A stretch of 61,064 nt of DNA, the filler included. It is 4 parts of 4 records of this genome, joined end to end, with 100 filler letters (N's around TTAATTAATTAA, not from the genome) between each part and the next. Parts side by side here need not be neighbours in the genome. Positions count along the whole stretch, not along the records: positions 35,106 to 52,125 come from SRR22947725_4560; 3 more parts are not named here. One strand, written 5' to 3'. A model generated the notes under the pieces. The model saw only the letters and a list, made by a program, of their open reading frames with translations, was not told where the DNA came from and did not search any database. The position numbers and the translations under genes are program-made. Below are positions 15,675 to 59,013 of this stretch, piece by piece (positions within the stretch are counted from its first letter, which is position 1; each line of letters starts with the position of its first letter).

Positions 15675-15678
15675 TCAC

Positions 15679-39579: not shown

Positions 39580-39582
39580 ATC

Positions 39583-41597: not shown

Positions 41598-41630
41598 TAA
41601 TAACTGTGGGCTTTATGAAGGAGTAATATT

Positions 41631-42824: not shown

Positions 42825-42844
42825 AGATTAGTAAAAAAAAGATA

Positions 42845-42880
42845 AGTGTCCGTGGGTTCTATTGCGGGCACTATTTTTTT
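42845..42880 (+). terminator. Intrinsic terminator of the ABC operon
   Basis: AGTGTCCGTGG...TTGCGGGCACT stem with G-U pairs, followed by A and a T7 run. Confidence 0.7.
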
Positions 42881-43905
42881 GTCTTGGGCCAGGTGTCAGA
42901 TATACGGTAACCGGTTGGCCATGGATCTGTAGGGTCTAATGTGTACTGGTGCGTCCCAGTTATCCATGCTCGTCCAGTAATTTCTGGGGTTATACTTACT
43001 ATACCACCTATTAAAGAGTCGTTTAAAATTTTGCCAGTGAAGCTAGAGCCAATAATGGACTCGCATTCTAATGTGTCATTTTTTTTCATTACTCCATTGT
43101 TATAGAGTAAAGCCATTCTGGCTGACACTGCCGTGCCTGTGGGCGACCTGTCTATTTTCCCGGGGTCAACAGCAACAGCCGATTTTGCAAATAATTTATT
43201 TCCTTTTCTTTTTATTTTACCTGCGAATAGACAGAAAGAAATATGGTTCCAATTTTTATTTACAGGGTGATTGAAACCAATTTGTTCATTAGCACATTTT
43301 GTTATTTTCACACCTAGTTCGGCAAGCTCTTTTGCCTCTGAGCTAACTAACTTGTAACCTAGTTTTTCAGCATCAACTATAACAAAACTATCCCCACCAT
43401 AAGCTGTATCAACAAATATTGAACCTAACTCTGGCACAATTAACTCAACATTTAATTGATCTACGAATGAATCTAAGTTTTCAACAGAAATTGATACAGC
43501 TTTGCCATTTTTGCAATTTGCTCGAACCCTTACAAGTCCACCAGGGGCCTCAAGCGTAAGTGTGGTTACTGGTTCGACCATTTCTATTATACCAGTCTCT
43601 AAAAGTACAGTTGCTACGCAAATACTATTGGATCCAGACATTGGAGGGGTGTGCTCAGGTTCCATGATTATCCAGCCGATGTCTGCTTTCGGATTTTTTG
43701 GGGGTACCAGTAAGTTAACATGCCGGAAAACCCCTCCACGAGGCTCATTTAAGACGTAGTTACGAAGAGTTTGGTCGTTATCAATCCAGGTCCTTTGATC
43801 CCAAATTGTGTCTCCAGGTGGTGGTGTTACACCACCAACTATTACATCGCCAACTTCGCCTCCTGCATGACAGGAGACCACATGGATTGTATTTGTATTT
43901 TTCAT
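42871..43905 (-). CDS. Proline-racemase-family enzyme, Ser/Thr active-site type (putative trans-3-hydroxyproline dehydratase)
   Basis: H..GE and EPRG motifs. PMSGSN and DRSPTGT occupy the positions of MCGH and DRSPCGT. Confidence 0.85.
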
Positions 43906-43939
43906 GTTTAAATAACAACCTTTTTAAAACTTTGTGTTT

Positions 43940-44890
43940 TTATGAAAATTTTCTTTTTAAAAAATTTGTAACATCATTTAAAGCACAGTTTGCTAGCTCA
44001 CTATCGAAAATATCAAAACCATGTACTCCACCTGGATACCAGATAGTGTTTGCGTCATTTCCTGCTGATTTCCACCTAGCGGCCATAAAACTTGTATCAT
44101 CTACTAGAGGATCAAGCGTACCACATTGAAATAATGCCTCTGGTAAGTGACGTAAGTCAGCATGAAGTGGAGACAAATAAGGATCATTTTTAGAAAGATT
44201 TTTTAAGTTTAAGTTCTCAACAAAGAAATTCAATAATGGTGTAGATAGAACTAACGGCTCATCACCCCAATTTGCAGCAGATGGAGTTAAGTTCGCATCA
44301 AACCAGCCGTATGTTAATAAAGCCCCAACAAATTGATCTATTTTATTTCTTTTCTTAAGCCTGAGCAGTGTAGCGGCACTTAAATGAGCTCCTGCACTTT
44401 CACCTCCAATAATAAGTTTATCTGTTCCAAACTTAGTATTACAAGATTCTATGATCCAATCAGCAGCCACTTCACAGTCATCTAAGCATGCTGGCCAGGA
44501 ATTTTCTGGGGTTAGACGATATTGTATTGAGGCGGTAATACAACCTACTTTGTCGGCGATCTTTTTCATTCGCCAATCTTGGTGCCAAGGTCTTCCAAAC
44601 GTAAAGCCTCCTCCATGAATATGGATATAAATCCCAATTGGATCTGATTTTGGATAAGTTAATCTAACAATACCTGGGCCACCATTTGTTGAACCTATAT
44701 CAAGATCTACTGCTTCAGGGTTGGCTGGATAAGAAGGAAATGTTCCTTCACCAGTATCTCTTGCTTTTCTAGCAAGTGGGATTGGTACATCTTGCAATCT
44801 AGGTTTTTCGAGCTGGTCTTTTTTGATAGCTTCAAGAAACTCAAGATCCTTCTTTAAAATTGATGATTTTTTAAATGGATTTTTTTGCAT
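43940..44890 (-). CDS. Alpha/beta hydrolase, HSL family
   Basis: HGGG oxyanion hole, GESAG nucleophile, DPL and HGF motifs. Confidence 0.9.
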   Translation of the reverse strand: MQKNPFKKSSILKKDLEFLEAIKKDQLEKPRLQDVPIPLARKARDTGEGTFPSYPANPEAVDLDIGSTNGGPGIVRLTYPKSDPIGIYIHIHGGGFTFGRPWHQDWRMKKIADKVGCITASIQYRLTPENSWPACLDDCEVAADWIIESCNTKFGTDKLIIGGESAGAHLSAATLLRLKKRNKIDQFVGALLTYGWFDANLTPSAANWGDEPLVLSTPLLNFFVENLNLKNLSKNDPYLSPLHADLRHLPEALFQCGTLDPLVDDTSFMAARWKSAGNDANTIWYPGGVHGFDIFDSELANCALNDVTNFLKRKFS

Positions 44891-44929
44891 TTTTGATCTC
44901 TTATTATTTTTAAGTCATTGAGTGTTCAG

Positions 44930-45886
44930 TTACTTACTTCCTACATTTGGAAGAATACATAACATTTCATATAAAATATTCGCTGCTGTAAGAGCTGTGT
45001 TTCCTGATGGGTCATAGGGGGGTGACACTTCTACTAAATCACAACCAACAATATTAAGTCCAGAAAGACTTCTTATCAACTCAATAGCCTGAGGAGTGGT
45101 AAGACCTCCAATTTCGGGTGTGCCGGTTCCAGGCGCATATGCTGGATCAAGGCTGTCAATATCAAACGATATATAAACTGGTGATTGTTTCAAATCATTT
45201 TTTATTCTTTCACCTAGAGGTGATAAAGATTTATGCCAAATTTCCTCTGCTTGAATTACATTAAATCCCCAATCTCGGGCTTCATCAAAGTCGCGTGCTG
45301 AATATCCGGTACCACGTACGCCAATTTGATATACAAGGTTGGGGTCAATTAATCCTTCTTCGTATGCGCGTCGAAAGGGCGTTCCATGCGCAATTTTCTC
45401 ACCAAACATTTCATCATTAATATCTGCGTGTGCATCTATATGAATTAACGCAACTGGCCCATATTTTCTCTTAATTGATCTTAATATTGGTAGTGTTAAA
45501 GTATGGTCACCACCCATTGCCATTGGAACTAATGGGTACTTTAGCAAATCCTCATAAAAAGACGCAATACGTACGACTGAATCCTTTAAGTCGAAAGTGT
45601 TTATCGCAATATCCCCAATATCTGCACAATTCAAATAATCAAAAGGAGCAGCTTTTGTCCACATATTGTAAGGTCTTAACATATTACTTTCGGCTCGAAT
45701 TTGTTTTGGACCAAATCTAGTGCCCGACCTCCAACTAGTCCCAATGTCCATAGGAATTCCAAGGAACGCGACGTCCAAGCCTTTCAAGACGTCTGTTGAT
45801 GGCAGCCTCATAAAGGTTCCTGGTCCAGAAAATCGAGGGTGTACGTTTCCTCCTAAGGGTTGATTTTTTAACTGATGATTTTTCAT
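44930..45886 (-). CDS. Ureohydrolase (agmatinase/guanidinobutyrase-like)
   Basis: GGDH, DAHAD, HGTPF and SFDIDSLDP motifs. The QPLGGN..PRF N-terminus is typical of GbuA-like enzymes. Confidence 0.9.
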   Translation of the reverse strand: MKNHQLKNQPLGGNVHPRFSGPGTFMRLPSTDVLKGLDVAFLGIPMDIGTSWRSGTRFGPKQIRAESNMLRPYNMWTKAAPFDYLNCADIGDIAINTFDLKDSVVRIASFYEDLLKYPLVPMAMGGDHTLTLPILRSIKRKYGPVALIHIDAHADINDEMFGEKIAHGTPFRRAYEEGLIDPNLVYQIGVRGTGYSARDFDEARDWGFNVIQAEEIWHKSLSPLGERIKNDLKQSPVYISFDIDSLDPAYAPGTGTPEIGGLTTPQAIELIRSLSGLNIVGCDLVEVSPPYDPSGNTALTAANILYEMLCILPNVGSK

Positions 45887-46028
45887 TTTTTTACAAATCT
45901 CTAAAATTTTTCTTATATAGGTTATAACTATTAACATTCATTATTTTGTTGGAAATATCAAATATTATGTTTATATACCGACCTTTACGTTACTTACCGA
46001 TTTAATTTAATGTATTTTGGAACTACGA

Positions 46029-47183
46029 ATGTTTAATCAGTTATATTCTTTGCTCTCAAATCCAACGACCCCAAGGAAAATATTAAACTCTGATGACGCT
46101 AGAAATCGTGCACGGAGAAGAATTCCACGAATAATATTTGATTTTATTGATGGTTCTACTGGGTCAGAGCTAACGCCGAATAGAAATATTGAAGCTTTCA
46201 AGTCTATTAATCTTCAACCTAGGGCATTAAAAAACGTATCGAAACGAAAGTTGAATACAACAATTTTAAATGAAAAATTTAGTCTTCCTTTTGGATTTGC
46301 ACCAATGGGCATGAGTGGTCTCTCAGTGCCAAATGCAGATAACTTTATGGCTAAGATTTCAATTGAAAAAAATATTCCAATAGGCGTTTCAACTGCTGCG
46401 TCAAGTTCTTTAGAAGACATGCGGAACAAAGCGGGTGAGCATGCTTGGTTCCAATTATATAGCGCGTCCTCTCTTGAGGAAACCTTACCTTTTGTTGATA
46501 GAGCGAAGGTTGCAGGATATAAAAAACTGATATTAACAGTTGATGTCCCACAAGTCTCTAAACGTATCAGAGATATCCGGAACGGTTTCGCAATGCCATT
46601 TAAGATTGGTCCTGCTCAATTTATTGACTTTGCTTGCCACCCATTCTGGTCAATACCCATGTTATTAAATGGAATACCTTTTCCTGAAAATTTTCGTATT
46701 AATGGTGAAAAAAAATTTCAACGTGACGCAGATAGGTCTGCTGCTGATTGGAGCTTTTTGAAAAAACTTCGAGATGTTTGGAAAGACGACTTGATCATTA
46801 AGGGAGTTACTCATCCTGAAGATGCCATAAAGATAAAAGAAATTGGCTGTGACGCAATATGGGTTTCAAACCACGGAGGTCGTCAATTAGATAGTTGTCC
46901 TTCAGCCATTTCAAGGCTTCCAATTATCCGTGAAGCATTAGGTAAAAATTACCCTCTTTTATTCGATAGCGGGATAAGAACGGGAGATGATGTTATAAAG
47001 GCCTTAGCACTGGGAGCCAATTTTGTTATGATTGGGCGGCCAATTCTTTTTGCTCTCGGTGCTGGTGGTCAAAATGGCTTAGACAGTTACGTCACCGCGC
47101 TATCAGAAGAAGTTAGTACGGTTATGGCTCAACTTGGATTAAATAGTATCCGTGAAATCAGTAGCGGTTGCATAGCCCTATAA
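46029..47183 (+). CDS. FMN-dependent alpha-hydroxy-acid oxidase/dehydrogenase (LldD-like)
   Basis: WFQLY, TVD, IIKG, SNHGGRQLD and DSGIR.G motifs. Confidence 0.92.
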   Translation: MFNQLYSLLSNPTTPRKILNSDDARNRARRRIPRIIFDFIDGSTGSELTPNRNIEAFKSINLQPRALKNVSKRKLNTTILNEKFSLPFGFAPMGMSGLSVPNADNFMAKISIEKNIPIGVSTAASSSLEDMRNKAGEHAWFQLYSASSLEETLPFVDRAKVAGYKKLILTVDVPQVSKRIRDIRNGFAMPFKIGPAQFIDFACHPFWSIPMLLNGIPFPENFRINGEKKFQRDADRSAADWSFLKKLRDVWKDDLIIKGVTHPEDAIKIKEIGCDAIWVSNHGGRQLDSCPSAISRLPIIREALGKNYPLLFDSGIRTGDDVIKALALGANFVMIGRPILFALGAGGQNGLDSYVTALSEEVSTVMAQLGLNSIREISSGCIAL

Positions 47184-47383
47184 CGAGCAACCTTCAATAA
47201 TCTTATAAAATCAGTAAAAACTTTATCTAGTTATACATGATGTTTTGTTTACTCATATTTATGTTATTTTAGAGTTGTAAATTTTTTTTTTGACGTCAAA
47301 GTTACGGTCTAACATAAACAATAATTTTTTGCCAAAAAATATAAATACTACAAGTTAAAGTTTATCTCAGTGGGGTAAAAGTA

Positions 47384-49102
47384 TTGAAAAATAGTACAAC
47401 ATTTAGAGGTGGTGCCATTTTGGCAAGAGCCTTTAAGGAAAAAGGAGTGGATCATGTGTTTACCCTTGCAGGAGGGTTTTGCAATCCGGCTCTTGAAGGT
47501 TTTATGGAATGCCATATGCCTGTTATCAACACTCCGCATGAGCAAATTGCCGGGCATCTTGCAGATGGTCATACAAGGATAACAAGGAAGCCGACTGTGT
47601 GTCTCGTGGGCCCTGAGGGATTTGCTAATGCCGTACCTGCCATGCTTGAAGCTGGTGGTGAGAGGAGTCCAGTTATCTTTGTAACTGGGTCTTCCACTTT
47701 AAAGAGGCAAGGTGCTGGAGGTTTTAAAGAAATTGACGATGTCGCAATAGCTGCTCCATTAGTTAAGTATTCGGTTCAAATTACTGATGGTGACCGAATT
47801 AGTGAGTTTGTTGATAGGGCATGGATTGCAGCTACCACTGGTTATCCAGGACCAGTCCATATCAGTTTACCTGTAGATATTATGTTTTCATCATTTGACG
47901 AAATGGTAGGTTTAAAGGAAAGGCCCTTTAATAGAAAAGAATCTGATCAACCGCGAGCATGGCCAAATCCAGAGAGCTTAGCTAAGGTTCATTCTCTATT
48001 GAAATCTGCAGAGAAGCCCATAATTATTGGCGGTCACGGTGTCTGGTGGTCAAAAAGTGAAAGTATTCTTAAAGATGTAGCTTTACGTCTTCGTATTCCG
48101 GTCTTTAATGTCCCTTATCACCAAAAGCTTTTAGGTGAGGAATGTGAGGCCTACATGGGTTTAGCTGATTTTCATCAGTATCACCCATCTAAGCAGGCGA
48201 TTCAGGAAGCTGATCTTGTTTTAATGATTGGTGGCCGGTTAGATAACCAAATGAATTTTGGAAACCCACCTTTCTTTCCTGAACAACAAAAATTAGTTTG
48301 TATTAATGGAAGTCACGAGGAGTTGGAGTATAACAGAGCATCAGATTATTCTTTACTGTCTGACCCTGGTGCTTTTTTGGAGAGCCTATCAAGTATTGAT
48401 TTAAGCTGGGAAAGTTGGTTCTCTCTTCAAAAAACAAGAAGAGAGTCATGGGTGTCTGATTGGGAAGAGCACATATCGTCAGAGACATTAAATAACTCAA
48501 GGATTCACCCCTTACAGTTATCTCTCGATGTACAATCAGTATTAGGTAATGAAGACTGGTTGATTTTTGACGGAGGCAATACGCATTTTTGGTCTGAAAT
48601 TGCAGTTAATATGGCGGGTTGGCGTGGGAAAAAGCTCGGTGGAATAATGCATCCTGGAAACTATAGCTTACTTGGGGTTGGTGTCTCATTTGCAATTTCA
48701 GCAAAAGCTCTGAATCCAAATAAAAATGTTGTTTTGATCAGTGGTGATGGGGCTTTCTTATCTGGAGGGTTGTCTGTCGAAGCGGCTTTTCAAGAAAACC
48801 TACCAATCACCGTTGTTATTGATAACAACGGTGGCTTAGATTGTATAAGTCAGCAGCAAGAAAGACTATTCGCCAACGGCAAACACTTTGCGACAGATTT
48901 TAGGGATATTCCGTTTCACTCAATGTTTGAAGGTCTAGGAGGTTACGGTGAACTTGTAACTACTCGTGAAGAGATTTTACCTGCCCTAAAAAGAGCTATG
49001 GAAAGTGGGAAAACTGCTTGTGTAAATGTAAAATGCCGTGGTGTGATTAGTCCAATCGTAGCTGCAACGTCCGATAAGCGTGATAAAGCTTCAATCGAAT
49101 GA
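47384..49102 (+). CDS. Thiamine-diphosphate-dependent enzyme (acetolactate synthase/2-hydroxyacyl-CoA lyase-like)
   Basis: HEQ catalytic Glu and GDGAF...NN ThDP motif. TTG start after GGGG. Confidence 0.9.
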   Translation: MKNSTTFRGGAILARAFKEKGVDHVFTLAGGFCNPALEGFMECHMPVINTPHEQIAGHLADGHTRITRKPTVCLVGPEGFANAVPAMLEAGGERSPVIFVTGSSTLKRQGAGGFKEIDDVAIAAPLVKYSVQITDGDRISEFVDRAWIAATTGYPGPVHISLPVDIMFSSFDEMVGLKERPFNRKESDQPRAWPNPESLAKVHSLLKSAEKPIIIGGHGVWWSKSESILKDVALRLRIPVFNVPYHQKLLGEECEAYMGLADFHQYHPSKQAIQEADLVLMIGGRLDNQMNFGNPPFFPEQQKLVCINGSHEELEYNRASDYSLLSDPGAFLESLSSIDLSWESWFSLQKTRRESWVSDWEEHISSETLNNSRIHPLQLSLDVQSVLGNEDWLIFDGGNTHFWSEIAVNMAGWRGKKLGGIMHPGNYSLLGVGVSFAISAKALNPNKNVVLISGDGAFLSGGLSVEAAFQENLPITVVIDNNGGLDCISQQQERLFANGKHFATDFRDIPFHSMFEGLGGYGELVTTREEILPALKRAMESGKTACVNVKCRGVISPIVAATSDKRDKASIE

Positions 49103-49446
49103 CCATATATTTAACTTCACACACTCTTGACGGATCTAATGGCAAGCATGCGGCTGGTATCCCTGTACGGCTTGAACACGTCAAGTCAAATTTGATTATT
49201 ATTAAGGGTATGATGGATGAGGGAGGTCGTTTTTCAGCTGAGATCCCGTCCAAAAAAATAATTAAAGGTGATCTTTATGATATAATATTTTCAGTAACTG
49301 AGTATTGGAATAAAGACCTAAAAAACACAGATAATGAAAATGTAATTGATGAAATAGTAGTTAGGTTTCGTATTACCAGTTCAACTAAGTACCACCTACC
49401 AGTCATAATATCTCCAAACTCTTATTCAATATGGAAATCTAGTTAA
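49099..49446 (+). CDS. Transthyretin-like protein (5-hydroxyisourate hydrolase family) with an atypical C-terminus
   Basis: SHTLD...G..AAG, GGRF and YHLP motifs. Ends YSIWKSS rather than YRGS. Confidence 0.85.
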   Translation: MTIYLTSHTLDGSNGKHAAGIPVRLEHVKSNLIIIKGMMDEGGRFSAEIPSKKIIKGDLYDIIFSVTEYWNKDLKNTDNENVIDEIVVRFRITSSTKYHLPVIISPNSYSIWKSS

Positions 49447-50558
49447 TGGCTGCAGATTTAACAATGTCGCGCAGGATAAGAAGAACGGCTTATACTGATA
49501 AAGTTGAAGGCGTAGGTGTTACAGGGTTTTCAGTTGTCAATCATATGATCCTTCCGAAATCTTTTCAATCAAGTATCGAGGAGGACTATTGGCACTTAAA
49601 AGAGCATGTGCAACTTTGGGATGTATCATGTCAAAGACAAATCCAGATCGTTGGTTTAGATGCAACAAGATTGGTGCAATTAATGACGCCTAGAGATATT
49701 GGAGCAATGAAAATTGGTGAATGCCTTTATGTTCCTATTATTGATCAGAATGCTGGCTTAATAAATGACCCAGTATTATTAAAAATTTCTTCCGAAAAGT
49801 ATTGGCTCTCTATAGCTGACAGTGATTTACTTTTATATGCTCTTGGGTTGACTATTGGCTTAAAGTTAAACGCAGTAGTTTCGGAGGCTGATGTTTGGGT
49901 TCTGTCTATACAGGGACCAAAAGCTGAAGATCTTGTAGCAGATTTATTTGGAAGTAAAATTCGGAAGATTGGATTTTTTAAATTTGACTGGGTTAATTTC
50001 AAGGGAACAAATCAGCTACTTGCTCGATCTGGTTATTCGCGTCAAGGTGGATTTGAAATTTACTTAGAAGGAAAGTATTTGGGTTCAGACTTGTGGGATC
50101 TAATTTGGGAGGCAGGTCAAATTTACAATATCAGACCTGGCGCACCTAATATTATAGAGAGAGTTGAAGGTGGGTTGTTTTCTTACGGGAATGAAATGAC
50201 GAGAGACAATAATCCATTGGAAATAGGATTGAGAAAATTTTGTTCATTAGATGGATCAATCGATTATATAGGTAGGGAGGCTTTAGAGAAAATTGCCTCA
50301 GAGGGCGAAACACAGCAGCTTCGTGGATTGATTTTTGATGGCCCTAGATGTCCTACCTGCGCAGAGCCTTGGCCGGTTCTACTTAATGGAGAAAAAATTG
50401 GGCAACTAACTTCTGGTATGTACTCACCAAGCTTAAAGGCAAATGTTGCTGTTGGAATGATTGCGAGGGATTTTTGGGGCTATAAAGGGGCGGTTGAAAT
50501 TAACTGCTTAGATTCTTTAAAACGTAATGGAATTATTTCGGCTTTCCCTCTAAAATAA
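49446..50558 (+). CDS. DmdA-like THF-dependent demethylase (GcvT family)
   Basis: SRRIRRT, HLKEHVQLWDV, NDPV, SIADSD, RSGYS.QGGFEIY and SYGN motifs. Close to DMSP demethylase but with substitutions. Confidence 0.85.
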   Translation: MAADLTMSRRIRRTAYTDKVEGVGVTGFSVVNHMILPKSFQSSIEEDYWHLKEHVQLWDVSCQRQIQIVGLDATRLVQLMTPRDIGAMKIGECLYVPIIDQNAGLINDPVLLKISSEKYWLSIADSDLLLYALGLTIGLKLNAVVSEADVWVLSIQGPKAEDLVADLFGSKIRKIGFFKFDWVNFKGTNQLLARSGYSRQGGFEIYLEGKYLGSDLWDLIWEAGQIYNIRPGAPNIIERVEGGLFSYGNEMTRDNNPLEIGLRKFCSLDGSIDYIGREALEKIASEGETQQLRGLIFDGPRCPTCAEPWPVLLNGEKIGQLTSGMYSPSLKANVAVGMIARDFWGYKGAVEINCLDSLKRNGIISAFPLK

Positions 50559-50583
50559 TAGCTTAATGGAAATGAGGTAACAC

Positions 50584-51750
50584 ATGAATGTATCTGTCCT
50601 ACCTAGGTCCCCGTGGATGGACTCAGAGTTAACAATGGTAGAGGACTCTTGTCGGCAGTTCTATCAAAGAGATTGTTTGCCTTACTACGAAGAGTGGGAA
50701 GAACGTGGTGATGTGGGAAGAGAAACTTGGGAAAAAGCGGGTTCAATGGGACTTTTAGGGGCTATGGTTCCAGAAGAGTACGGTGGTCCTGGAGGAAGCT
50801 TTGCTTATGACGCTGTAATCGCGTATCAGGGTAATTTACTTGGTGTCGATGGTTGGGGAGGAGGATTGCACAATGCAATAGTGATACCTTATATATTAAA
50901 TTATGGGTCTGAAGATCAAAAAAAACGCTTATTACCTAAACTGGTTTCAGGAGAACTTATCGGTGCAATAGCAATGTCAGAGCCTTCCACAGGGTCTGAT
51001 CTCCAAGGTATTAAGACTACAGCCACTAAAGAAGGTAACCATTACTCAATTTCTGGTCAAAAAACCTTCATTACAAATGGAAAGTTAGCAAACTTAGTTA
51101 TAACAGTTGCTAAGACTGATCCAAGTGAAGGTGCTAGAGGTACTTCACTTTTTTTAGTTGAAACAGATGAAGTCACTGGTTTTCGACATGGAAGAAACTT
51201 GGATAAAATTGGCATGAAGTCCAACGATACTTCTGAATTATTCTATGATAGCGTAAAAGTTCCTGCTTCCAGTTTACTCGGACCGGAAGAAGGGCAAGGC
51301 TTTTATCAGCTTATGGGTGAACTACCTCAAGAGAGGCTTTTAATTGCGATTTATGCAATTGCTAGAATTGATCGAGCCTTAGGAGTTACATTAGATTATG
51401 TTAAGGAGCGAAAGGCTTTTGGTAAATCAATTTCAGAGTATCAAAATACACAATTTGAACTCGCAGAATGTAAGACAGAAGCCACGATAGGAAAGGTTTT
51501 TGTTGACCACTGTATTAGTGAACATTTGTTAGGAAAGTTAACAACTGAAATGGCCTCAATGGCGAAGTACTGGTTAACAGATTTGCAATCAAAGATAATT
51601 GACAGATGCCTTCAGCTACACGGTGGTTATGGATACATGAATGAGTATCCGATTGCACGAATGTACAGAGATAACCGTGTCGAAAGAATTTATGGTGGAA
51701 CTAACGAAATAATGAAGGTTCTAATAGCTCGAGGACTTTGGTCAAAATAA
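50584..51750 (+). CDS. Acyl-CoA dehydrogenase (LCAD-like)
   Basis: AMSEP..GSD, GQKTFITNG, QERL, QLHGGYGY and IYGGTNEI motifs. Confidence 0.93.
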   Translation: MNVSVLPRSPWMDSELTMVEDSCRQFYQRDCLPYYEEWEERGDVGRETWEKAGSMGLLGAMVPEEYGGPGGSFAYDAVIAYQGNLLGVDGWGGGLHNAIVIPYILNYGSEDQKKRLLPKLVSGELIGAIAMSEPSTGSDLQGIKTTATKEGNHYSISGQKTFITNGKLANLVITVAKTDPSEGARGTSLFLVETDEVTGFRHGRNLDKIGMKSNDTSELFYDSVKVPASSLLGPEEGQGFYQLMGELPQERLLIAIYAIARIDRALGVTLDYVKERKAFGKSISEYQNTQFELAECKTEATIGKVFVDHCISEHLLGKLTTEMASMAKYWLTDLQSKIIDRCLQLHGGYGYMNEYPIARMYRDNRVERIYGGTNEIMKVLIARGLWSK

Positions 51751-51762
51751 GCTCACATGGGC

Positions 51763-52125
51763 TTAGTTAACCAGATGGGACGAAGGTACTTGCTCTTTCA
51801 ACCAAGAAACAAACAGTAATATGTCTGGGTTAGGATTTGTATGTTGTTTTATCAAGATGTGGTAAGCTCGCGTAGGCTGTAAATCTATGTCAAATAATTT
51901 GACTAATGTACCTGCCATTACTTCTGGATCAACAAACGGAAACGAACCTAATGCAATACCTCCAGAGTCAATGGCGGCTTGTAAGGCAACGTTTGAGTCC
52001 ATTATAGTAATCCCAGTTTCCACATTTAATTCATGAAAACCGCTTAAGCCCACCCATGCTTTCCATTCTGAAAAATCATATTGATGTATAATATTAAAAT
52101 TTAACAATTCAGTAGGAGAAATATC
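51763..52125 (-). CDS. LysR-family regulator (GcvA-like), C-terminal fragment
   Basis: W..W, ALQAAI...GIAL, G.LV..F and F..WL motifs. Truncated by the spacer. Confidence 0.8.
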   Translation of the reverse strand, partial: DISPTELLNFNIIHQYDFSEWKAWVGLSGFHELNVETGITIMDSNVALQAAIDSGGIALGSFPFVDPEVMAGTLVKLFDIDLQPTRAYHILIKQHTNPNPDILLFVSWLKEQVPSSHLVN

Positions 52126-52333: not shown

Positions 52334-52654
52334 TTAAATACTTGATGTAATCCAGTCAGCCAAAGCAGCTTTTGGAGCTGCACCAGTTTTATTTGCAATA
52401 GCCTGTCCATCTTTAAACAAAAATAATGCTGGAATTCCCCTTACACCCATTTGCGCAGGTGAATTTGGGTTTTCATCAACATTTATTTTCACTATTTTTA
52501 CCTTACCTTCATATTCATCGGATAGCTCTTCTAATGCAGGGCCAATTTGTTTACATGGCCCACACCACTCTGCCCAAAAATCAACTACAACAGGTATGTT
52601 TGAATTAGTTACTTCAGCTGTGAATGTATCGTCAGTTACTTTTACGGTTGCCAT
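52334..52654 (-). CDS. trxA: Thioredoxin
   Basis: [11 protein letters not shown]. Downstream of addA, as is usual in alphaproteobacteria. Confidence 0.97.
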
Positions 52655-52687
52655 TGGGCTTCTCCAGAAATTTTCGTTAAATTGAAT

Positions 52688-55600
52688 CTAAGAACGATCT
52701 ATTGAATCGTCAAGATGTAGTGATGCTTCTAATGTATTAATCGCGATGTTGTGAGGTATTTTCATAATCTCACCAGTTTTCGTCCATAAAATAGCTATTT
52801 CAATGCTAAGTTTTGGATAGATTTTTTGTAATGCAAGTAAATAAACAGCCTGTTGAGCTAGAATTCCCTTAGGTATTTCTTCAGCTGAATTGGGAATGCC
52901 TTCATTACTTTTAAAATCTATAGCTGTAATTGTATTTTCACCTATTATTAATCTATCAATATATCCAAGAATATCATTATTAAGTTGTGATATATGACTA
53001 GTTATACCAACTTCAGATAAGCTGTTTGAACCAAAAAATATATAAGACAATTTTGGATCTTCTAACAAAACAATAGCTTCTGAAATGAGAATATTTTTTT
53101 CTTTATTACTCAAGTTGTTGTTATCATTTTTTATGAAATTACCTAAAAATATATCCCATTCAGATTTAGGTATTTTAGGAAGATCTTCTAAGATTTTATG
53201 TAATATTCTCCCCATTTCTTTTGCTTCAGCTTCATACTTACTGGATGTATTTTGGAGTACTTTTTCTCCTACTAAATTTGATGGAGCTAATGCTTGATTT
53301 GGTCTATTAAGTTTTTTTGCCTTTGTCTTTAACCACTTGGGATTTGTATTTATCTCAATATCTAATTTTGGCTTATTGTCTATTGTTTGGAGATCATCCC
53401 AGTTTTCGTCTTTTAATACCAAGCCTGTGTCTTTTTGGTTAAACATATATTCTGATGCATTGAGTTCAATCATAGATTCTTTAATTATATTATACCAAGA
53501 GCTTTCCTTTTTATAATTGCCAGCACCACATACAATGAGCCAACTTTCAGCTCGTGTTAATGCAACATATAGTAGACGCATTTTCTCTTCTGATTGTTTT
53601 TCTTTTATCGTATTTTCAGTTAAATTTTGTATTTCGCTACCTTCATTACCAGTACTTCTCCAAACGGCTGTATTTTTTGAGAGTGTTATTTGTGAAGTTT
53701 GAGGTAAATTTTTATCTCCTGTATCTGGTAGAATAACTATTGGTGATTCAAGTCCTTTTGAACCATGAACAGTCATTACACGAATTTGATTTACCTTGCC
53801 CATATCGCGTTTTATTTCAACTTCGCCAGAAACAAACCATTGTAAAAAACCTGATAGAGTTGGGGCTTCTAATGTTTCATATTGTAATGATTGGGAAAGT
53901 AACTCATCGATACCATCTTCTACTTCTAAACCTAGTCTTGCTAATAATTTTTTTCGACCATTATGTTTTGTTAATATACGCTCTATTAATTCATAGGGTC
54001 GTAGATAACCAACTTGATTTCTAATATCTGTTAAAATTTCAAGGGCTTTAACATGATGATTTTGCTCCCTTAAAGACTGCCATAATGTTCCTTTCCTTTC
54101 ATAAGCAACCTTAAATAAGTCATTTTCTGATAGCCCTAGTAATGGTGAACGCATTGCTTCAGCTAATGACAAATCATCATTTGCCATATTTGCAAATTTT
54201 AAAATTGATAAAATATCTCTTACAGCTAATTCATCTCCAACATTAAGTCTGTCTGCACCTGCAACAGGAATATCCAAAGATTTTAATTCTCTTAAAATCT
54301 CTTTGAACAACGAGGATGAACTGTGTGTCTCACGACCTTGAACTAAGATTAATATATCACCTGGAGTAATTTTTCTAAAACTATTATCTACATTTATTGT
54401 TTGATTACTTTGAAGTAATTCTTTGATATTTTGTGAAATGAGGCGCGCAAGCTCTTTTTTAGGATCATTTGGTGCGGGCATATCAATAGGCCTATACCAT
54501 ACTTCTTTTTCTGGGTGACTTTGCTTCTCAATAAATGGCCAAAGATCTACTCTTCCTGGTTTAGAATTATGGAAAGCTTTATGCCTGGACTTTGGACGCT
54601 TTTCATTAGCAAAAATTTGATCAACTAATTTTAATATTTGTGGTGCTGAGCGAAAGGAATGTAGTAATTCACAATTTTCCATATTTTGATTTATATGCTG
54701 TAATAAGTTTGTAAATTCAGATTTTTTTTCGCTAAATATATCTGGATCGGCGCCCTGAAAAGAATAAATAGATTGCTTCTCATCACCAACTATAAATAGG
54801 CTTCTTGGTCTATCATTAGCCGAGATACCATATGTAAACTCACGAGCTAGACAATCTATTACAGCCCATTGAGCGGGGCTGGTGTCTTGAGCTTCATCTA
54901 CTAAAATGTGATCTAAACCACCATCTAGTCTGTATAATACCCATTGAGCCATTGAGCTAGAAGTCAGCAATTTTGAAGAAAGATTAATTAAATCATCATA
55001 ATCAAGAAACGCATTAAAAGCCTTTCTCTTATCATATGCTTTTAGAAAAGAACGTGCAAAACTATGTAATACTAGTGATCGATTGTATGCATTAATAGCC
55101 AAGCGACTTCTGCGTGCAGTTTCAATATCTTTAGATATTATCAATTGTGCTTTGTACAAGGGGTTAGATTTAGGAATTAATTTTAACGTAGCAATATTTT
55201 CTTTAGCTGAATATGAACCTGCTTTTGCTACTTTTCCATTTAAGAAAACTTTTTCTAATGTTTTGAGTTTTATATTATTTGAAGTAGTTAAAAAATATTC
55301 TTTTAGTTTATCTGCTGCTTTTATGTCATTTTTTGAGCCAGTTTCTAAAGTTGTCATTAATACTTTTATTATATCTTCATGTTTGCTGATTGTTTGATCA
55401 AACATTTTCTCAAGCGAAATATCTTCAGAAATACCAAAGTTTTTGCGTGTTGGTTTAACGTTAAAGCCTGTTCTTTTTTTTACAATTTCATTTGTTAAAT
55501 CATCCGTATCAAGACGTGTAAAATGTTTGGCTAACATGTCAATTTCTGAAGTGTCAGATTGTTGAGCCATTTTTTCAACGACTTCTATTCGTAATTGTTT

Positions 55601-56062
55601 TGCCTGACGCTCCTCCAGCATATTAAATTGAGGTGATACACCAGCTTCTAATGGGAAGCGTCGTAATAATGCATCACAAAATGAGTGAATTGTTTGAACT
55701 TTTAACCCACCTGGTGTTTCAAGAGCAGCTGCAAATAAAGTTCGAGCTTGTTTAATTTTACTTGGGCTTAAAATACTATCGTTTTCACCTAAATTTTTTA
55801 ATTCTGCTCTTAGCTCTTTGTCAGGCAACATTGCCCATTGACCTAGACGTTTAAATAAACGGTTTTGCATTTCAGCTGCGGCTGCCTTTGTATAAGTGAG
55901 GCATAAAATCTTTTGTGGATCTGTGCTGTTTAGTAATAATCTAGCAACTCTATCAGTTAAAACTCTTGTTTTACCTGAGCCAGCATTTGCTGATACCCAT
56001 GTATTTTTGGTTGGGTCAGCAGCAAATATTTGTGCTAATGTTGCTTCATTAAAACTTGTCAT
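52688..56062 (-). CDS. addA: Double-strand break repair helicase-nuclease AddA
   Basis: ANAGSGKT, TIHSFC, DEAQD, TVHGSKGLE, YVALTRA and nuclease IDRL...IDFKS motifs. Confidence 0.96.
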   Translation of the reverse strand: MTSFNEATLAQIFAADPTKNTWVSANAGSGKTRVLTDRVARLLLNSTDPQKILCLTYTKAAAAEMQNRLFKRLGQWAMLPDKELRAELKNLGENDSILSPSKIKQARTLFAAALETPGGLKVQTIHSFCDALLRRFPLEAGVSPQFNMLEERQAKQLRIEVVEKMAQQSDTSEIDMLAKHFTRLDTDDLTNEIVKKRTGFNVKPTRKNFGISEDISLEKMFDQTISKHEDIIKVLMTTLETGSKNDIKAADKLKEYFLTTSNNIKLKTLEKVFLNGKVAKAGSYSAKENIATLKLIPKSNPLYKAQLIISKDIETARRSRLAINAYNRSLVLHSFARSFLKAYDKRKAFNAFLDYDDLINLSSKLLTSSSMAQWVLYRLDGGLDHILVDEAQDTSPAQWAVIDCLAREFTYGISANDRPRSLFIVGDEKQSIYSFQGADPDIFSEKKSEFTNLLQHINQNMENCELLHSFRSAPQILKLVDQIFANEKRPKSRHKAFHNSKPGRVDLWPFIEKQSHPEKEVWYRPIDMPAPNDPKKELARLISQNIKELLQSNQTINVDNSFRKITPGDILILVQGRETHSSSSLFKEILRELKSLDIPVAGADRLNVGDELAVRDILSILKFANMANDDLSLAEAMRSPLLGLSENDLFKVAYERKGTLWQSLREQNHHVKALEILTDIRNQVGYLRPYELIERILTKHNGRKKLLARLGLEVEDGIDELLSQSLQYETLEAPTLSGFLQWFVSGEVEIKRDMGKVNQIRVMTVHGSKGLESPIVILPDTGDKNLPQTSQITLSKNTAVWRSTGNEGSEIQNLTENTIKEKQSEEKMRLLYVALTRAESWLIVCGAGNYKKESSWYNIIKESMIELNASEYMFNQKDTGLVLKDENWDDLQTIDNKPKLDIEINTNPKWLKTKAKKLNRPNQALAPSNLVGEKVLQNTSSKYEAEAKEMGRILHKILEDLPKIPKSEWDIFLGNFIKNDNNNLSNKEKNILISEAIVLLEDPKLSYIFFGSNSLSEVGITSHISQLNNDILGYIDRLIIGENTITAIDFKSNEGIPNSAEEIPKGILAQQAVYLLALQKIYPKLSIEIAILWTKTGEIMKIPHNIAINTLEASLHLDDSIDRS

Positions 56063-59013
56063 TTAACAACTTTCGGAATTGGCTTATCACTATCTTGCCA
56101 TTCGCCTTTACGTGATAATTGATCATAATCTGATATGTGATTTAGAAATTGAATTTTATCTCTAGCAGTAAACCCTTTCTGAGGATTATTATAAGCTAAA
56201 ATTAAACTTCTAAAATCTTTTAATATTTCATTCAGTTCTTGAGCATCAATATGAACAGATTGTTTTTTTAACTCTGGCCCTAAGCTTATATATTCTAAAT
56301 GTTCAATTGATTGTTTCTGAATTTTATTAAATCCATTATGAAATGCAATCATTGCTTCTAATTGTAATTGTTTATCAAAATATTCAATATCACCTAAAGA
56401 TGGGGGCTTACTAGCTTTGTAATCATATAGGCGAAGTCCATTCTTACCTTGGTCAATACGATCTGCTTTTGCCGTTAATTTAAAGTATAAATCTTGAAAA
56501 TCCATTTCTCCCTTACGTTCAAGTGCTACGTTTACACCCTTGATACGACGCTCAATTTCTTGATTTATAAAGGAAGATGAAATAGCTTGCATTCTAGCAA
56601 GCCATAAACGTTGAGCAGCTGGCCATGGAACTTCTTTTTTTAAAACTTCATCAGCGATTTTGATAAATAAATCTGATGCATCATCAGGTAATTCATTTTT
56701 AGTTTGTTTTATAAACTCTTCTAAAATTGTGTGAATAATATTCCCACGTTCAATTGCATCAGCTTGTTTTCCCAGCGGCTCTAATTTTTTTAATTTTAAA
56801 ATAACTGATGCGTAAATTTTATATGGATCACGAATTAAGTCTTTAATTTGGGTTACTGATAATTTTTTCAACCGTGCGTTTATTGGGGGAATTGGTGAAG
56901 GGCGTTTTTCCAGAGGAATTTTTTTATCTATTTCAACTTTATCTAAATTTCGAGCTAAAGCTAACCAATAGTCACCTCTATTGCGCATATTACTTAATGC
57001 AGCAGGTCCCTCACTTTTAAGCCCTTCCATTAAATTAGTAATTCTTATTATCCAACGCGATGGTGTTGAAGGTGTATCTCCGTCTCTTAATGAACGTGAT
57101 AAAACAACATTACTTGCAGATATAGCTTGTTGAAAATCATGTGCTGACAGACCTATACGCCTTTCTGGCAAAAGTAGTGATAATTGCTTGCGCATGTCAC
57201 GATTAAGCCACATATCGTGACTAGACTTTGTTGGCCATGTGTCTTCATTTAGTCCACCGAGAATAACTAAATCTTTTGATTGCACCCTTGCTTCTAGTGT
57301 GCCCCAAATTGAAATTAATGGACTTGCAGATTGTTTTTCTGATCGCAACTCTTGAGACAATATGGATCTCAAAAATGCATTAAATTCTATATTTGACATT
57401 AATCCGCTAGAGGCTGATTGGTTTGCTAACTGATCTAAAGTATTTAAAGCAGCAATCCCTGAATCTTTTTCCCAAACTGTACCGTTATTATTATTCTCAG
57501 GATTATCAGATAGTATTTCAGCTGTTTTTTTTAATAAATTAAGCCAGTCAGATAGCTCCATTTCTTTTACGTATTGTAATGGCTGGAAAATAGTTGAAAG
57601 CCATTTAATCCAAACTATTTTGTCAGTATCTTTTGTGGCCCAATTTGATAAAAGCTCAAAGTCAATGAATGGTGGCCCTCCACGTAACATTTTTGTACCA
57701 TTAAATTGGCCTACTTCTATTTCCATAACCATCAAATTATGAAGGTTTCTACCATTAGCAGAATGGGTTAATGGATGCTTTAATAAGGCTAAAAAATCAT
57801 GTGTTAATATAGAATTACCAAAACATTGAGCTATGGATCTAAGGAATATGCCTGTAGTCGACAACTGAAGAGGAGTGCCAGCTGAGTCATCTGCTTCAAT
57901 ATCCCATCTTGAAAGATTTGCGTTAACTCGCCTGGTTAAATTACGACTTGGGGATATAAGAACGGCTTCTTGCCCTTGTTCAGTAGCGTAACGTAATCGA
58001 GTTGCAATTGTGAGAGCTTCCTCCTTAATTGTGTCTGCTTCAATTAATTCAAGGTTCTGTGTAGCTTTGTTTAAATATGGTTTTAATGATGGGCCATATT
58101 CCAGCCACTGATTGGTTATTGGTGCGGGCCTCAGTGCTAATGATATTAATTTATTCCGATCAACATTTCTTATATTTGTTTTATGCCATTCATCAACATC
58201 ATTAAAATCTATATTTAAAAAATTAAATAATTTTGCAAACCCAGCCTGTGGATGATCTAAAGTAAACTTCTTTTTTTTAAATGATACCCATATATCTTTT
58301 GGTAATTCATCATCTATTCCTGGCAAAATAACTGCACCGTTTGGAAGCTTAGCAACTGCCTTCATAAATAATGCAGTTGCTCCCCTAGAGCCTGTTGATC
58401 CTGCTATTAAAATTGTTTGATTTGTTGGGATCCTATCCCAATGATTAGCATATGTTTCTACCACGTGCCGCATACGATCTTGAGGGTCTGTTAGTGAATT
58501 TTGCTCCCAATGATTTGCTAAAATTGAAAGAAATTTTTTGCTTCTATCCCAGTGAGCTGAATGTTCACCAACGTCCAAATTCATGACGTTTGCCATATCA
58601 ACCCCTTCACCTTGTGCTTCATCCATTAAAGCTTCTAAACTTTGGGCTAAATCATATGTTGCTGAAACAGGTGCTAAATCTGGTTCAGCCAGTAAGAGTT
58701 TTCGAATTAATTGACCCAGACTGATCATGCGCTGATGTGTGGGTGCTGGTGTAGGTAAATTGCAAAGCTTTAGTGGGTCTTCAGAAAGGTCAGCAATTAA
58801 ATGAAATTCAGGAAGTAAACTAGGACCTGACTTTACAAACAACTCTTTAAGTTTTCGTTCTGCTCTTCTTGTATTAACAAATATAATTATACGGGCTAAT
58901 TCATGAGGTTGCTTACCAATTAAACGCTGTTTTAAACCGTCTAAAAATACTTGAGAAAAATCTATACCAATAGGTAATTTAAAAACTCTTGATTTTTTTG
59001 TTGGGTCAAACAT
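56059..59013 (-). CDS. addB: Double-strand break repair protein AddB
   Basis: AGSTGS, GGLNE, RDPY, nuclease ADRID...DYK and terminal YD.L.R..EW motifs. Overlaps addA. Confidence 0.95.
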   Translation of the reverse strand: MFDPTKKSRVFKLPIGIDFSQVFLDGLKQRLIGKQPHELARIIIFVNTRRAERKLKELFVKSGPSLLPEFHLIADLSEDPLKLCNLPTPAPTHQRMISLGQLIRKLLLAEPDLAPVSATYDLAQSLEALMDEAQGEGVDMANVMNLDVGEHSAHWDRSKKFLSILANHWEQNSLTDPQDRMRHVVETYANHWDRIPTNQTILIAGSTGSRGATALFMKAVAKLPNGAVILPGIDDELPKDIWVSFKKKKFTLDHPQAGFAKLFNFLNIDFNDVDEWHKTNIRNVDRNKLISLALRPAPITNQWLEYGPSLKPYLNKATQNLELIEADTIKEEALTIATRLRYATEQGQEAVLISPSRNLTRRVNANLSRWDIEADDSAGTPLQLSTTGIFLRSIAQCFGNSILTHDFLALLKHPLTHSANGRNLHNLMVMEIEVGQFNGTKMLRGGPPFIDFELLSNWATKDTDKIVWIKWLSTIFQPLQYVKEMELSDWLNLLKKTAEILSDNPENNNNGTVWEKDSGIAALNTLDQLANQSASSGLMSNIEFNAFLRSILSQELRSEKQSASPLISIWGTLEARVQSKDLVILGGLNEDTWPTKSSHDMWLNRDMRKQLSLLLPERRIGLSAHDFQQAISASNVVLSRSLRDGDTPSTPSRWIIRITNLMEGLKSEGPAALSNMRNRGDYWLALARNLDKVEIDKKIPLEKRPSPIPPINARLKKLSVTQIKDLIRDPYKIYASVILKLKKLEPLGKQADAIERGNIIHTILEEFIKQTKNELPDDASDLFIKIADEVLKKEVPWPAAQRLWLARMQAISSSFINQEIERRIKGVNVALERKGEMDFQDLYFKLTAKADRIDQGKNGLRLYDYKASKPPSLGDIEYFDKQLQLEAMIAFHNGFNKIQKQSIEHLEYISLGPELKKQSVHIDAQELNEILKDFRSLILAYNNPQKGFTARDKIQFLNHISDYDQLSRKGEWQDSDKPIPKVVK

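Follow-up and report, generated by a model that had tools for sequence, protein, structure and literature searches.

A conserved cassette linking a thiamine diphosphate enzyme and a transthyretin-like protein to a DmdA-family methyltransferase: a possible route for a DMSP-related sulfonium acid

Layout of the locus and source of the sequence

A stretch of DNA of 61,064 nucleotides (hereafter the window) was found to carry, on its plus strand at 46017-51750, a run of closely spaced genes that includes a relative of DmdA, the demethylase of dimethylsulfoniopropionate (DMSP). Gene families were assigned with Pfam and NCBIfam, and the nearest structures were taken from PDB matches. The run opens with a flavin mononucleotide (FMN)-dependent L-2-hydroxyacid dehydrogenase (46017-47183, +), which is the first gene of the conserved cassette described below. 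An AT-rich spacer of 200 nt (47184-47383) separates it from the gene for an orphan thiamine diphosphate (ThDP) enzyme (47384-49102, +), which begins at a TTG start and encodes three TPP_enzyme domains. Next come a transthyretin-like (TTR-like) protein of what we call the W-type (49099-49446, +; PF00576), a DmdA-family tetrahydrofolate (THF)-dependent methyltransferase of the cassette clade (49446-50558, +; NF009133), and an acyl-CoA dehydrogenase (ACAD) that resembles the long-chain enzyme LCAD and is a lineage-specific, non-core gene (50584-51750, +). The ThDP stop and the TTR start share the sequence ATGA at 49099-49102, a 4-nt overlap (gaATGAcc). The TTR stop and the DmdA start meet in TAATG at 49444-49448, where TAA and ATG share one base (agTTAATGgc, 49443-49448), and 25 nt separate the DmdA and ACAD genes (50558 to 50584). 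An earlier note on this DNA had placed the last four genes and their junctions (ATGA, TAATG, 25 nt) at these positions, and all of them are seen in the sequence. It had also reported that no urate or dmdB/dmdD genes are adjacent, and none is present among the open reading frames (ORFs) annotated at 35.5-52.1 kb. A search for a riboswitch in the spacer gave no Rfam match at E<=1 across 35106-52125, and consensus scans of the spacer for promoters and terminators gave scores no better than shuffled sequence.

The window is composite: it joins at least four unrelated segments, which meet near 14 kb, at 35105/35106 and at 52125/52126. Their G+C contents are ~58% (1-14 kb), ~42% (14-35 kb), ~40% (35-52 kb) and ~32% (52-61 kb). 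Only the 17 kb at 35106-52125 are 100% identical to genome G001, where they lie in a contig of 1.9 Mb; the rest of the window matches G001 weakly or not at all. G001 is an uncultured Rhodobacteraceae metagenome-assembled genome (MAG) of 2.5 Mb in 3 contigs, 98% complete, and it was used for the genome-wide comparisons. The whole putative operon lies inside the G001-identical segment. Genes at the joins are cut, as is a LysR gene at 51763-52125, and findings that span the joins are to be distrusted.

Ten RNA runs contain part of the stretch, and four of these runs, from three studies, yield contigs that fall on the putative operon at >=95% identity. The contigs of run X7 include pieces over the DmdA-ACAD junction (50054-50622) and over the ACAD end (50908-51865). 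The parts left uncovered in X7 and X13 carry no meaning.

Conservation of the gene order

The arrangement was followed in a synteny census, in which one genome per species of the GTDB collection was scanned with an alignment of the TTR-like subfamily, whose PNSYSxW C-terminus is invariant. From the 127 loci that the scan gave, the best 80 were taken forward, and neighbors were called by tblastn with the window proteins. The ThDP gene, copies cut by contig ends included, lies directly upstream of the TTR gene and on the same strand in 79/80 loci, the exception being L096, where it is on the opposite strand. A DmdA-family gene lies directly downstream of TTR in 71 of the loci, while eight are without it despite having room and one has no room. 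Directly upstream of ThDP, the FMN dehydrogenase was found in 63/80 (11 without, 5 with no room and 1 not applicable), and all four genes are present in 59. With the three closest kin excluded, identity to the window proteins is 66-81% for ThDP, 32-46% for TTR, 52-69% for DmdA and 46-58% for the dehydrogenase. Extrapolated stop-to-start medians, which are rough, are ~-3 nt from ThDP to TTR and ~+3 nt from TTR to DmdA. In an independent check anchored on the ThDP gene in 201 Rhodobacterales genomes, a TTR match immediately adjoined in 5/5 carriers. The earlier note had named a core that is not syntenic elsewhere as the finding that would overturn its proposal; when this test was run, the core proved to be syntenic.

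The order ThDP-TTR-DmdA is present in Rhodobacteraceae, SAR116/Puniceispirillales, Hyphomicrobiales/Rhizobiaceae, Kiloniella, Granulosicoccaceae and a family of small-genome Alphaproteobacteria. It also occurs in complete chromosomes and isolate genomes (L037, L066, L071, L078 and L097). The ACAD directly follows DmdA only in the G001 contig and two relatives (L034-L036). Orthologues 72-76% identical to it lie within ~7 kb in four other loci (L071, L081, L091 and L104), and a copy of 85% identity is found in genome G190. The conserved unit consists of the FMN dehydrogenase, the ThDP enzyme, the TTR-like protein and the DmdA-family protein, with ACAD as a recurrent but non-core neighbor, and the constant heart of the unit is the ThDP enzyme together with the W-type TTR. 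The boundaries drawn previously thus need to be shifted at both ends: ACAD had been counted as part of the operon core, and a start at 47384 left out the dehydrogenase at 46017-47183, which is the conserved fourth member. A full-text literature search found no description of this arrangement, although gene-neighborhood tables and dmdA clade lists in supplements, which lay outside the search, might show the linkage.

The ThDP enzyme served to measure how widespread the cassette is. An orthologue (E<=1e-150) was found in 3/401 evenly drawn alphaproteobacterial genomes, in 5/201 Rhodobacterales genomes and in 2/61 sampled genomes of the genus of Roseibium album. In the small-genome alphaproteobacterial family of genome G409, 68 of 116 genomes have one, many of these genomes being 55-90% complete. 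The cassette is patchy overall and common in some pelagic lineages.

The DmdA-family gene

The DmdA-like protein of the window scores 521.4 bits with NF009133, above the curated cut-off of 410, and 345.8 bits against the P. ubique DmdA structure 3TFH; the copy in G001 scores 524.6 bits with NF009133. Matches over the DmdA cut-off were found in 113/201 Rhodobacterales genomes, ~97 of them of the canonical type at 650-705 bits. The label canonical rests on acuI downstream and GntR upstream at locus L120, surroundings of dmdA that are described for R. pomeroyi and most roseobacters in parts of two papers (PMC3338564, PMC5395565). The label SAR11-type rests on a score of 556.9 bits to 3TFH. A careful maximum-likelihood tree of 67 rows was rooted on the G001 GcvT protein (support given as ultrafast bootstrap/SH-aLRT). 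In it, the cassette-linked proteins form one clade of 41 rows (99/98), and the canonical roseobacter proteins form a separate clade of 15 rows (100/100). Both of these clades and the SAR11-type row fall in a 100/100 clade, with paralogues of ~375 bits outside. Support for the cassette and canonical clades as sisters is weak (87/72), with a bootstrap that had not fully settled; a quick tree of 111 rows agrees with the 67-row tree. Orthology to a verified enzyme, taken as the same subclade in single copy, was not found for the cassette protein, which stands in its own clade. Five positions set the cassette clade apart from both verified types: V31, K38, L207, E250 and F297 (window numbering). 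That this protein departs from its characterized relatives had been proposed before, and the tree bears it out.

Several genomes hold two copies. G036 and G029 each have a canonical copy (691 bits) and a copy of 566-567 bits beside ThDP-TTR. The same pairing of canonical and cassette copies is seen in Planktotalea frisia SH6-1 (684.8 and 569 bits) and Aliisedimentitalea sp. MJ-SS2 (687 and 563 bits). In G409, a genome of 1.6 Mb, the cassette copy scores 405.3 bits to 3TFH and accompanies the SAR11-type copy of 556.9 bits. The retention of two copies in these five genomes argues for distinct roles. In G001, a roseobacter with a reduced genome, and in Kiloniella spongiae, the cassette copy is the only DmdA over the cut-off, and no canonical copy was found in G001. 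G001 also holds a 376-bit paralogue, 39% identical to the cassette copy and scoring 288.5 bits to 3TFH. Another G001 locus (L116, C1:174493-178029; locus positions 1468-2601) contains what is left of a DmdA-like paralogue, frameshifted and spread over three or four frame pieces. This remnant was considered as a decayed canonical dmdA and rejected, since its first 188 residues are 81% identical to an intact G036 copy of the ~375-bit paralogue group. Separately, L064 and L072 carry a second DmdA-family gene 2-3 kb downstream of the cassette (L064:5628-6734, - strand; L072:6555-7661, - strand); it is 45% identical to that of the window and branches near the SAR11-type row, outside the cassette clade.

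The comparison with the DMSP pathway of Ruegeria pomeroyi and 'Ca. Pelagibacter ubique' (DmdA, DmdB and DmdC together with DmdD/AcuH) gives both likenesses and differences. The GcvT-fold THF-dependent methyltransferase is common to both, within the 100/100 clade, and an ACAD (window) or a crotonase (G409) follows the cassette DmdA gene, as DmdC or DmdD would. However, the cassette locus is without the acuI/GntR neighbors of the canonical dmdA locus, and its ACAD is LCAD-like rather than a demonstrated DmdC. Ahead of the cassette DmdA gene there are always ThDP and TTR-like genes, to which the portion of PMC5395565 that sets out the DMSP pathway gives no role. In strain HTCC1062, the verified dmdA (SAR11_0246) sits with mhpC, fadD and mmgC according to an excerpt of PMC3160333. 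A close DmdA paralogue in that strain, SAR11_1265, lies next to metF and is given no role in the corresponding excerpts of PMC3160333 and PMC5069961. A link of the cassette copy to this paralogue was considered; no metF was found beside the cassette in G409.

The transthyretin-like protein

The TTR-like protein, of ~115 aa, matches PF00576 at 71.3 bits and scores 66.2 bits with TIGR02962, the model of 5-hydroxyisourate (HIU) hydrolase, which is under the cut-off of 87.45. It shares with HIU hydrolases (PucM/TLP) the transthyretin fold, the length, the YH-P motif and the catalytic set His8, Arg44 and His99; H8, R44 and H99 are invariant in the cassette proteins, whose alignment has a mean column identity of 57%. 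A C-terminal Tyr-Arg-Gly-Ser is the defining signature of HIU hydrolases, and this YRGS end is seen in the G001 HIU hydrolase and in PDB chains. The cassette proteins instead end in PN(S/G)YSxWxS, the window copy in ...SPNSYSIWKSS, and W112 is invariant in 41/41 of them. They also carry GxHA where HIU hydrolases carry GxPA. The true HIU hydrolase of G001 is encoded elsewhere (129.5 bits, ending ...GYSTYRGS) and adjoins genes for OHCU decarboxylase, ureidoglycine aminohydrolase/allantoicase and ureidoglycolate lyase, a purine cluster. The cassette locus, in contrast, lacks this urate-gene context, and no urate or allantoin genes are present in 35106-52125. The divergence of this protein from characterized relatives, which had also been suggested, is seen in its score, its W-type end and its GxHA motif.

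At E<=1e-30, a profile search of 1.84 billion representative proteins gave 25 clusters, and at E<=1e-10 it gave 524. Among the best 150 clusters, 133 are full length, and these comprise 92 with the W-type end, 21 with YRGS and 20 with neither. GxHA is present in 56/92 of the W-type proteins and in 0/21 of the YRGS proteins. These data define a new transthyretin-like subfamily of >=92 clusters at 50% identity. The cassette TTR-like protein is an obligate partner of the ThDP enzyme, probably as a helper of the hydrolase type or one that handles the substrate.

The thiamine diphosphate enzyme, the dehydrogenase and the acyl-CoA dehydrogenase

All three domains of the ThDP superfamily (PF02776, PF00205 and PF02775) are matched by the ThDP protein, placing it in that superfamily. 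An alignment of 41 sequences has a mean column identity of 79%, and residues E53, G454-D455-G456 and D480-N481-N482 are invariant. No NCBIfam cut-off was reached, the best score being 261.8 against a cut-off of 587 (PRK05858). The scores for 2-hydroxyacyl-CoA lyase (HACL, 214.9/600), oxalyl-CoA decarboxylase (OXC, 200.1/557), acolac_lg (219.4/538) and Xsc (172.2/676) were likewise below their cut-offs. Its nearest PDB relatives are HACL/HACS (201.9 bits), OXC (177), benzaldehyde lyase (BAL; 162) and AHAS (~130), and neither pyruvate decarboxylase nor benzoylformate decarboxylase was among the 60 best PDB matches. With OXC, HACL/HACS and Xsc the enzyme shares the three-domain architecture, the catalytic Glu and the GDG...NN motif, and like Xsc it is found in organosulfur contexts. 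It differs from OXC, HACL and Xsc in missing every curated cut-off by >=300 bits and in forming a highly conserved orthologue group of its own that is always paired with a TTR-like gene, which the known enzymes do not have. By these sequence comparisons, the enzyme is an unusually conserved orphan of the OXC/HACL/benzaldehyde lyase branch.

The dehydrogenase at 46017-47183 matches PF01070 at 385.7 bits and belongs to the family of LldD, glycolate oxidase and mandelate dehydrogenase. Its best NCBIfam match, the LldD subfamily, scores 263.9 bits, under the cut-off of 376. A close analogy for its position is the mandelate pathway of Pseudomonas putida, in which MdlB, an FMN-dependent (S)-mandelate dehydrogenase, is followed by MdlC, a ThDP-dependent benzoylformate decarboxylase. 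As there, an FMN L-2-hydroxyacid dehydrogenase gene stands directly upstream of a ThDP enzyme gene, which would allow a 2-hydroxy acid to be oxidized to the 2-oxo acid and then shortened by one carbon. The cassette ThDP enzyme, however, does not belong with the benzoylformate and pyruvate decarboxylases, the cassette has no racemase and no constant aldehyde dehydrogenase, and its TTR-like and DmdA genes have no counterpart in the mandelate pathway. The two cassette enzymes may work like MdlB and MdlC, by analogy, without being a member of that pair.

The ACAD has the N-terminal, middle and C-terminal Acyl-CoA_dh domains of Pfam. Its best PDB match is 2pg0 (391 bits), human LCAD scores 385, and no NCBIfam cut-off for an ACAD was reached.

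Neighboring genes and variant forms

Transporters of several types lie beside the cassette. An Opp/Dpp-type ABC transporter accompanies the form with DmdA in ~21/80 loci, and it is in the same operon in G036 and Kiloniella; an Opp/Dpp binding protein heads the operon of G409. Other neighbors of this form are TRAP transporters (6 loci), a cupin gene of the DMSP-lyase family (5), Ldh_2 (8) and aldehyde dehydrogenase (6, and G409). An AMP-ligase gene is found in L099 and L113, and N-methylglutamate-pathway genes are found in L048 and L063. The G409 operon also holds BHMT/MmuM-like, GcvT-family, OsmC and crotonase genes.

ThDP-TTR occurs without DmdA in eight loci. In L081 and L104, a LysR gene lies opposite to the run TctC-TctB-TctA-ThDP-TTR-FAD-linked (GlcD-like) oxidase, with TauD next in L081; ACAD stands behind LysR in both, together with enoyl-CoA hydratase (ECH) in L081. 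G190 has ThDP-TTR-thiolase, divergent from LysR-ACAD-ECH. Two TauD genes precede ThDP-TTR in L107, where a luciferase-like monooxygenase gene follows, and in L083 the pair comes after TauD, an MBL-fold gene and a further TauD and is followed by a sulfatase gene. Roseibium album CECT 5095 (L097, 1-8342) carries tandem ThDP-TTR pairs, one of them followed by an FAD-linked oxidase and TauD, the second preceded by LysR and an FMN dehydrogenase. The only DmdA over the cut-off in this strain (631 bits) is on another contig. Across the forms with and without DmdA, the ThDP-TTR pair is nearly always accompanied by a 2-hydroxyacid oxidoreductase, and further by either a sulfonium-type methyltransferase of the DmdA clade or TauD-type dioxygenases, in settings of organosulfur and acyl-CoA genes. 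The TRAP, TctABC and Opp-type transporters would suit an organic acid as the substrate, and the aldehyde dehydrogenase, AMP-ligase, ACAD, ECH and thiolase neighbors would fit a fate from aldehyde to acid to acyl-CoA.

At the downstream end, the minus-strand feature at 51763-52125 is the C-terminal fragment of a GcvA-like LysR gene (PRK11139), cut where the source changes. Its ORF (51763-52107, 114 aa) is the C-terminal third, which scores 71.6 bits over profile positions 188-294. The gene is whole in G001 (306 aa, L002:15862-16782). There, it is divergent from an operon (L002 = G001:C1:575000-594000; 8900-16782) of MttB-like, PanE-like reductase, FAH-family, EamA/DUF6 and CocE/NonD hydrolase genes. 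Since it diverges from the MttB-like operon, it more likely regulates that operon and probably not the cassette; the reported GcvA-like regulator converging on the cassette was thus a cut gene that faces another operon. The LysR that recurs beside the cassette, in 34/80 loci, belongs to a different cluster (c4). The MttB-like operon, of the non-Pyl kind, is itself a candidate unit for quaternary-amine demethylation and recurs beside the cassette in L035, L036 and L079.

Further out upstream lie agmatinase-family, esterase, trans-3-hydroxy-L-proline dehydratase, Liv-type ABC transporter and dimethylglycine-dehydrogenase-like genes. The first three of these, at 42871-45937 (-), are divergent from the cassette and comprise trans-3-hydroxy-L-proline dehydratase (588.5 bits, above its cut-off), an HSL-type esterase and an agmatinase-family ureohydrolase. 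L043-L045 and L058 likewise have an agmatinase-family gene divergently upstream of the cassette (33-34% identity). The dimethylglycine-dehydrogenase-like genes are a divergent pair (805 and 802 aa, each with an FAD domain and a GcvT fold) flanking the start of the G001-identical block (window 35503-37920; L003:14188-16596). With this pair and the Liv-type transporter, the region appears as an island of methyl-group harvesting genes. Past 52125, the low-G+C segment shows 68-78% identity to G001 in short patches only. At 52334-59013 (-) it encodes a thioredoxin as well as two AddA/AddB-like helicase-nuclease ORFs that are very large (1124 and 984 aa), as judged from translation only.

Proposed role of the cassette

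The explanation that we favor, with a probability of about 0.45, is that 46017-51750 would form one operon around a conserved four-gene cassette that degrades a DMSP-related dimethylsulfonium 2-hydroxy acid. The leading candidate would be 4-dimethylsulfonio-2-hydroxybutyrate (DMSHB), which is a precursor of DMSP in algae and bacteria. From the gene content, we infer the following order of steps. The DmdA-clade enzyme would move one S-methyl group to THF, the FMN dehydrogenase would take the 2-hydroxy group to a 2-oxo group, and the ThDP enzyme would split the C1-C2 bond by decarboxylation, giving a three-carbon thioether or sulfonium aldehyde or acid. Candidates for this C3 product are methional/methylmercaptopropionate (MMPA) and DMSP-aldehyde/DMSP. 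The product would then enter CoA-dependent steps resembling beta-oxidation, through ACAD here and through crotonase, ACAD with ECH, or thiolase in other lineages. The evidence that points this way includes the coupling, the synteny, the paired DmdA copies, the recurrent neighbors and transporters and the RNA contigs described above. It also includes the organosulfur context, with a cupin DMSP-lyase-family gene in five loci, TauD, sulfatase and luciferase-like monooxygenase in variants without DmdA, and the BHMT/MmuM-like and further GcvT-family genes of the G409 operon; moreover, an FMN dehydrogenase followed by a ThDP enzyme would follow the logic of MdlB and MdlC. What the genes are, their coupling, synteny, clade structure and paralogy, and their presence in RNA libraries are shown, whereas the class of substrate, the order of steps and the part played by the TTR-like protein are inferred. 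A narrower form of the proposal is improbable when taken on its own: that the dehydrogenase, the ThDP enzyme and the W-type TTR carry out a widespread conversion in which DMSHB, or a related sulfonium hydroxy acid, yields a C3 compound at the level of DMSP, with the cassette DmdA specialized for that route.

Several points weigh against degradation of a sulfonium hydroxy acid. The nearest solved relatives of the ThDP enzyme use acyl-CoA or benzoin rather than free 2-oxo acids. The cassette DmdA passes the curated cut-off and is the sole such gene in G001, so that plain DMSP demethylation may be all it does. Variants have a GlcD-like FAD oxidase in place of the L-specific FMN enzyme; this type is usually D-specific or active on glycolate, and an achiral 2-hydroxy acid such as glycolate would fit this exchange better than DMSHB. 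Neither aldehyde dehydrogenase nor CoA ligase is a constant partner. The proposal leaves the role of the TTR-like protein unexplained, and the substrate that it names, chosen from sequence, is a guess. The 80 loci were picked through the TTR gene, and the counts are conditional on its presence. Finally, the long X1 and X2 RNA contigs also span genes on the opposite strand, so DNA carry-over is possible and a single transcript cannot be proved from them.

Another possible explanation, which we regard as rather unlikely, is that the DmdA copy is an ordinary DMSP demethylase and its three partners are an add-on for something made or required during DMSP demethylation, for example a small 2-hydroxy acid such as glycolate or lactate entering glyoxylate or pyruvate chemistry, and no separate route for another substrate. 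The score above the curated cut-off (521.4 against 410), the nesting of the clade between SAR11-type and canonical roseobacter DmdA, the lone copies of G001 and Kiloniella spongiae, the adjoining cupin gene and the exchange of an L-type FMN enzyme for a GlcD-like oxidase would all be expected if this were so. There is also a precedent in HTCC2255, a roseobacter with a reduced genome, whose dmdA is still counted as such in an excerpt of PMC3338564 despite being without the usual acuI neighbor. Yet five genomes keep the cassette copy beside a canonical or SAR11-type DmdA, and ThDP-TTR also occurs without DmdA, among TauD, sulfatase and beta-oxidation genes, so that the pair is no accessory of DmdA as such. 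Tight translational coupling in ~70 loci would be unusual for functionally unrelated genes, and the ThDP enzyme is far from glyoxylate carboligase (~100 bits). The kinship of the ThDP enzyme could point instead to a CoA-dependent route resembling alpha-oxidation. The enzyme would then act as a 2-hydroxyacyl-CoA lyase or as a 2-oxoacyl-CoA decarboxylase and take one carbon off a CoA-activated organosulfur acid, with formyl-CoA or CO2 as the released product. ACAD, crotonase and thiolase would act before or after it, and DmdA or TauD would remove the sulfur-bound group. Its nearest structures and its NCBIfam scores for HACL (214.9) and OXC (~200) lean in this direction. So does its invariant C-terminal tail, as in the lid-bearing OXC and HACL enzymes, which may serve as a lid here too. 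ACAD orthologues (72-85%) recur beside ThDP-TTR in >=6 lineages, ECH stands beside ACAD in L081 and G190, thiolase comes directly after TTR in G190, and the G409 operon includes a crotonase gene. The combination of a TauD-type dioxygenase and a ThDP lyase also parallels that of phytanoyl-CoA hydroxylase and HACL1. But the HACL and OXC cut-offs are all missed widely, a CoA ligase or transferase is not constant (AMP-ligase in L099 and L113 only), and the substrates of FMN 2-hydroxyacid dehydrogenases are free acids rather than CoA esters, which together make such a route unlikely.

The cassette could also run toward DMSP rather than away from it. The dehydrogenase, the ThDP enzyme and the TTR-like protein would then be the missing general DMSHB oxidative decarboxylase that makes DMSP in producers of the DsyB type. 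Part of PMC11306096 describes the DMSHB decarboxylases of L. aggregata, algae and Rhizobium as unidentified and probably widespread, and the only known enzyme, DsyD, as recruited from a purine-catabolism family (ureidoglycolate lyase), a history that the TTR-like protein would parallel. In Roseibium album CECT 5095, neither of the two ThDP-TTR pairs is linked to a DmdA, and several carriers are Rhizobiaceae or Hoeflea. Nevertheless, a ThDP orthologue is present in just two of the 61 sampled genomes of the genus of Roseibium album, the cassette is mostly joined to a demethylase (71/80), and its frequency in a family of small-genome heterotrophs (68/116) points to catabolism, leaving the biosynthetic role very improbable. 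Finally, the adjacency might be meaningless and come from chance, assembly or binning, as the window itself joins unrelated segments and some MAG labels are plainly wrong. The contigs L064 (Sulfurimonas), L068 ('proteobacterium') and L072 (Neomarinimicrobiota) are near-identical, and L101 and L109 are labeled Flavobacteriaceae and Urechidicola, so misbinning is likely and these labels are no proof of a wide host range. This explanation is effectively refuted, since the operon lies entirely within the 17-kb block identical to the 1.9-Mb G001 contig and the same order is found in complete and isolate genomes and in 59-79 of the 80 loci.

The undescribed pathway linked to demethylation that the earlier note had proposed holds in broad terms, with a conserved unit, but its boundaries, its regulator and its idea of a heterocyclic substrate were wrong. 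A methylated heterocycle (methylurate or methylxanthine) or an N-osmolyte found no support, as the DmdA protein nests in the DMSP-demethylase clade and the variant contexts are organosulfur.

Significance

DMSP demethylation is the main sink of one of the ocean's largest organic sulfur fluxes and decides how much climate-active dimethyl sulfide escapes, and counts of dmdA serve as a molecular proxy for this process. The cassette is a variant within DMSP-type organosulfur catabolism and is of interest for marine sulfur cycling. Through it, one monophyletic group of genes counted as 'dmdA' is tied to three enzymes for which the textbook pathway has no need. Activity on DMSP would mean that an unknown branch of DMSP carbon metabolism exists. 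If the cassette acts on another sulfonium compound, then readings of sulfur flux from dmdA abundance would need revising, and a new currency between algae and bacteria would become testable. The cultured carriers are Planktotalea frisia SH6-1, Aliisedimentitalea sp. MJ-SS2, Kiloniella spongiae MEBiC09566 and Roseibium album CECT 5095. Should the substrate be of the DMSHB type, abundant ocean heterotrophs (pelagic roseobacters, SAR116 and SAR11-like lineages) would draw on a second algal sulfonium pool that has been overlooked, and some of the 'dmdA' counted in surveys would report that pool and not DMSP. The ThDP enzyme and the W-type TTR would then make up a new unit of two proteins that cleaves C-C bonds in organosulfur acids and is put to use again with TauD or sulfatase in other settings.

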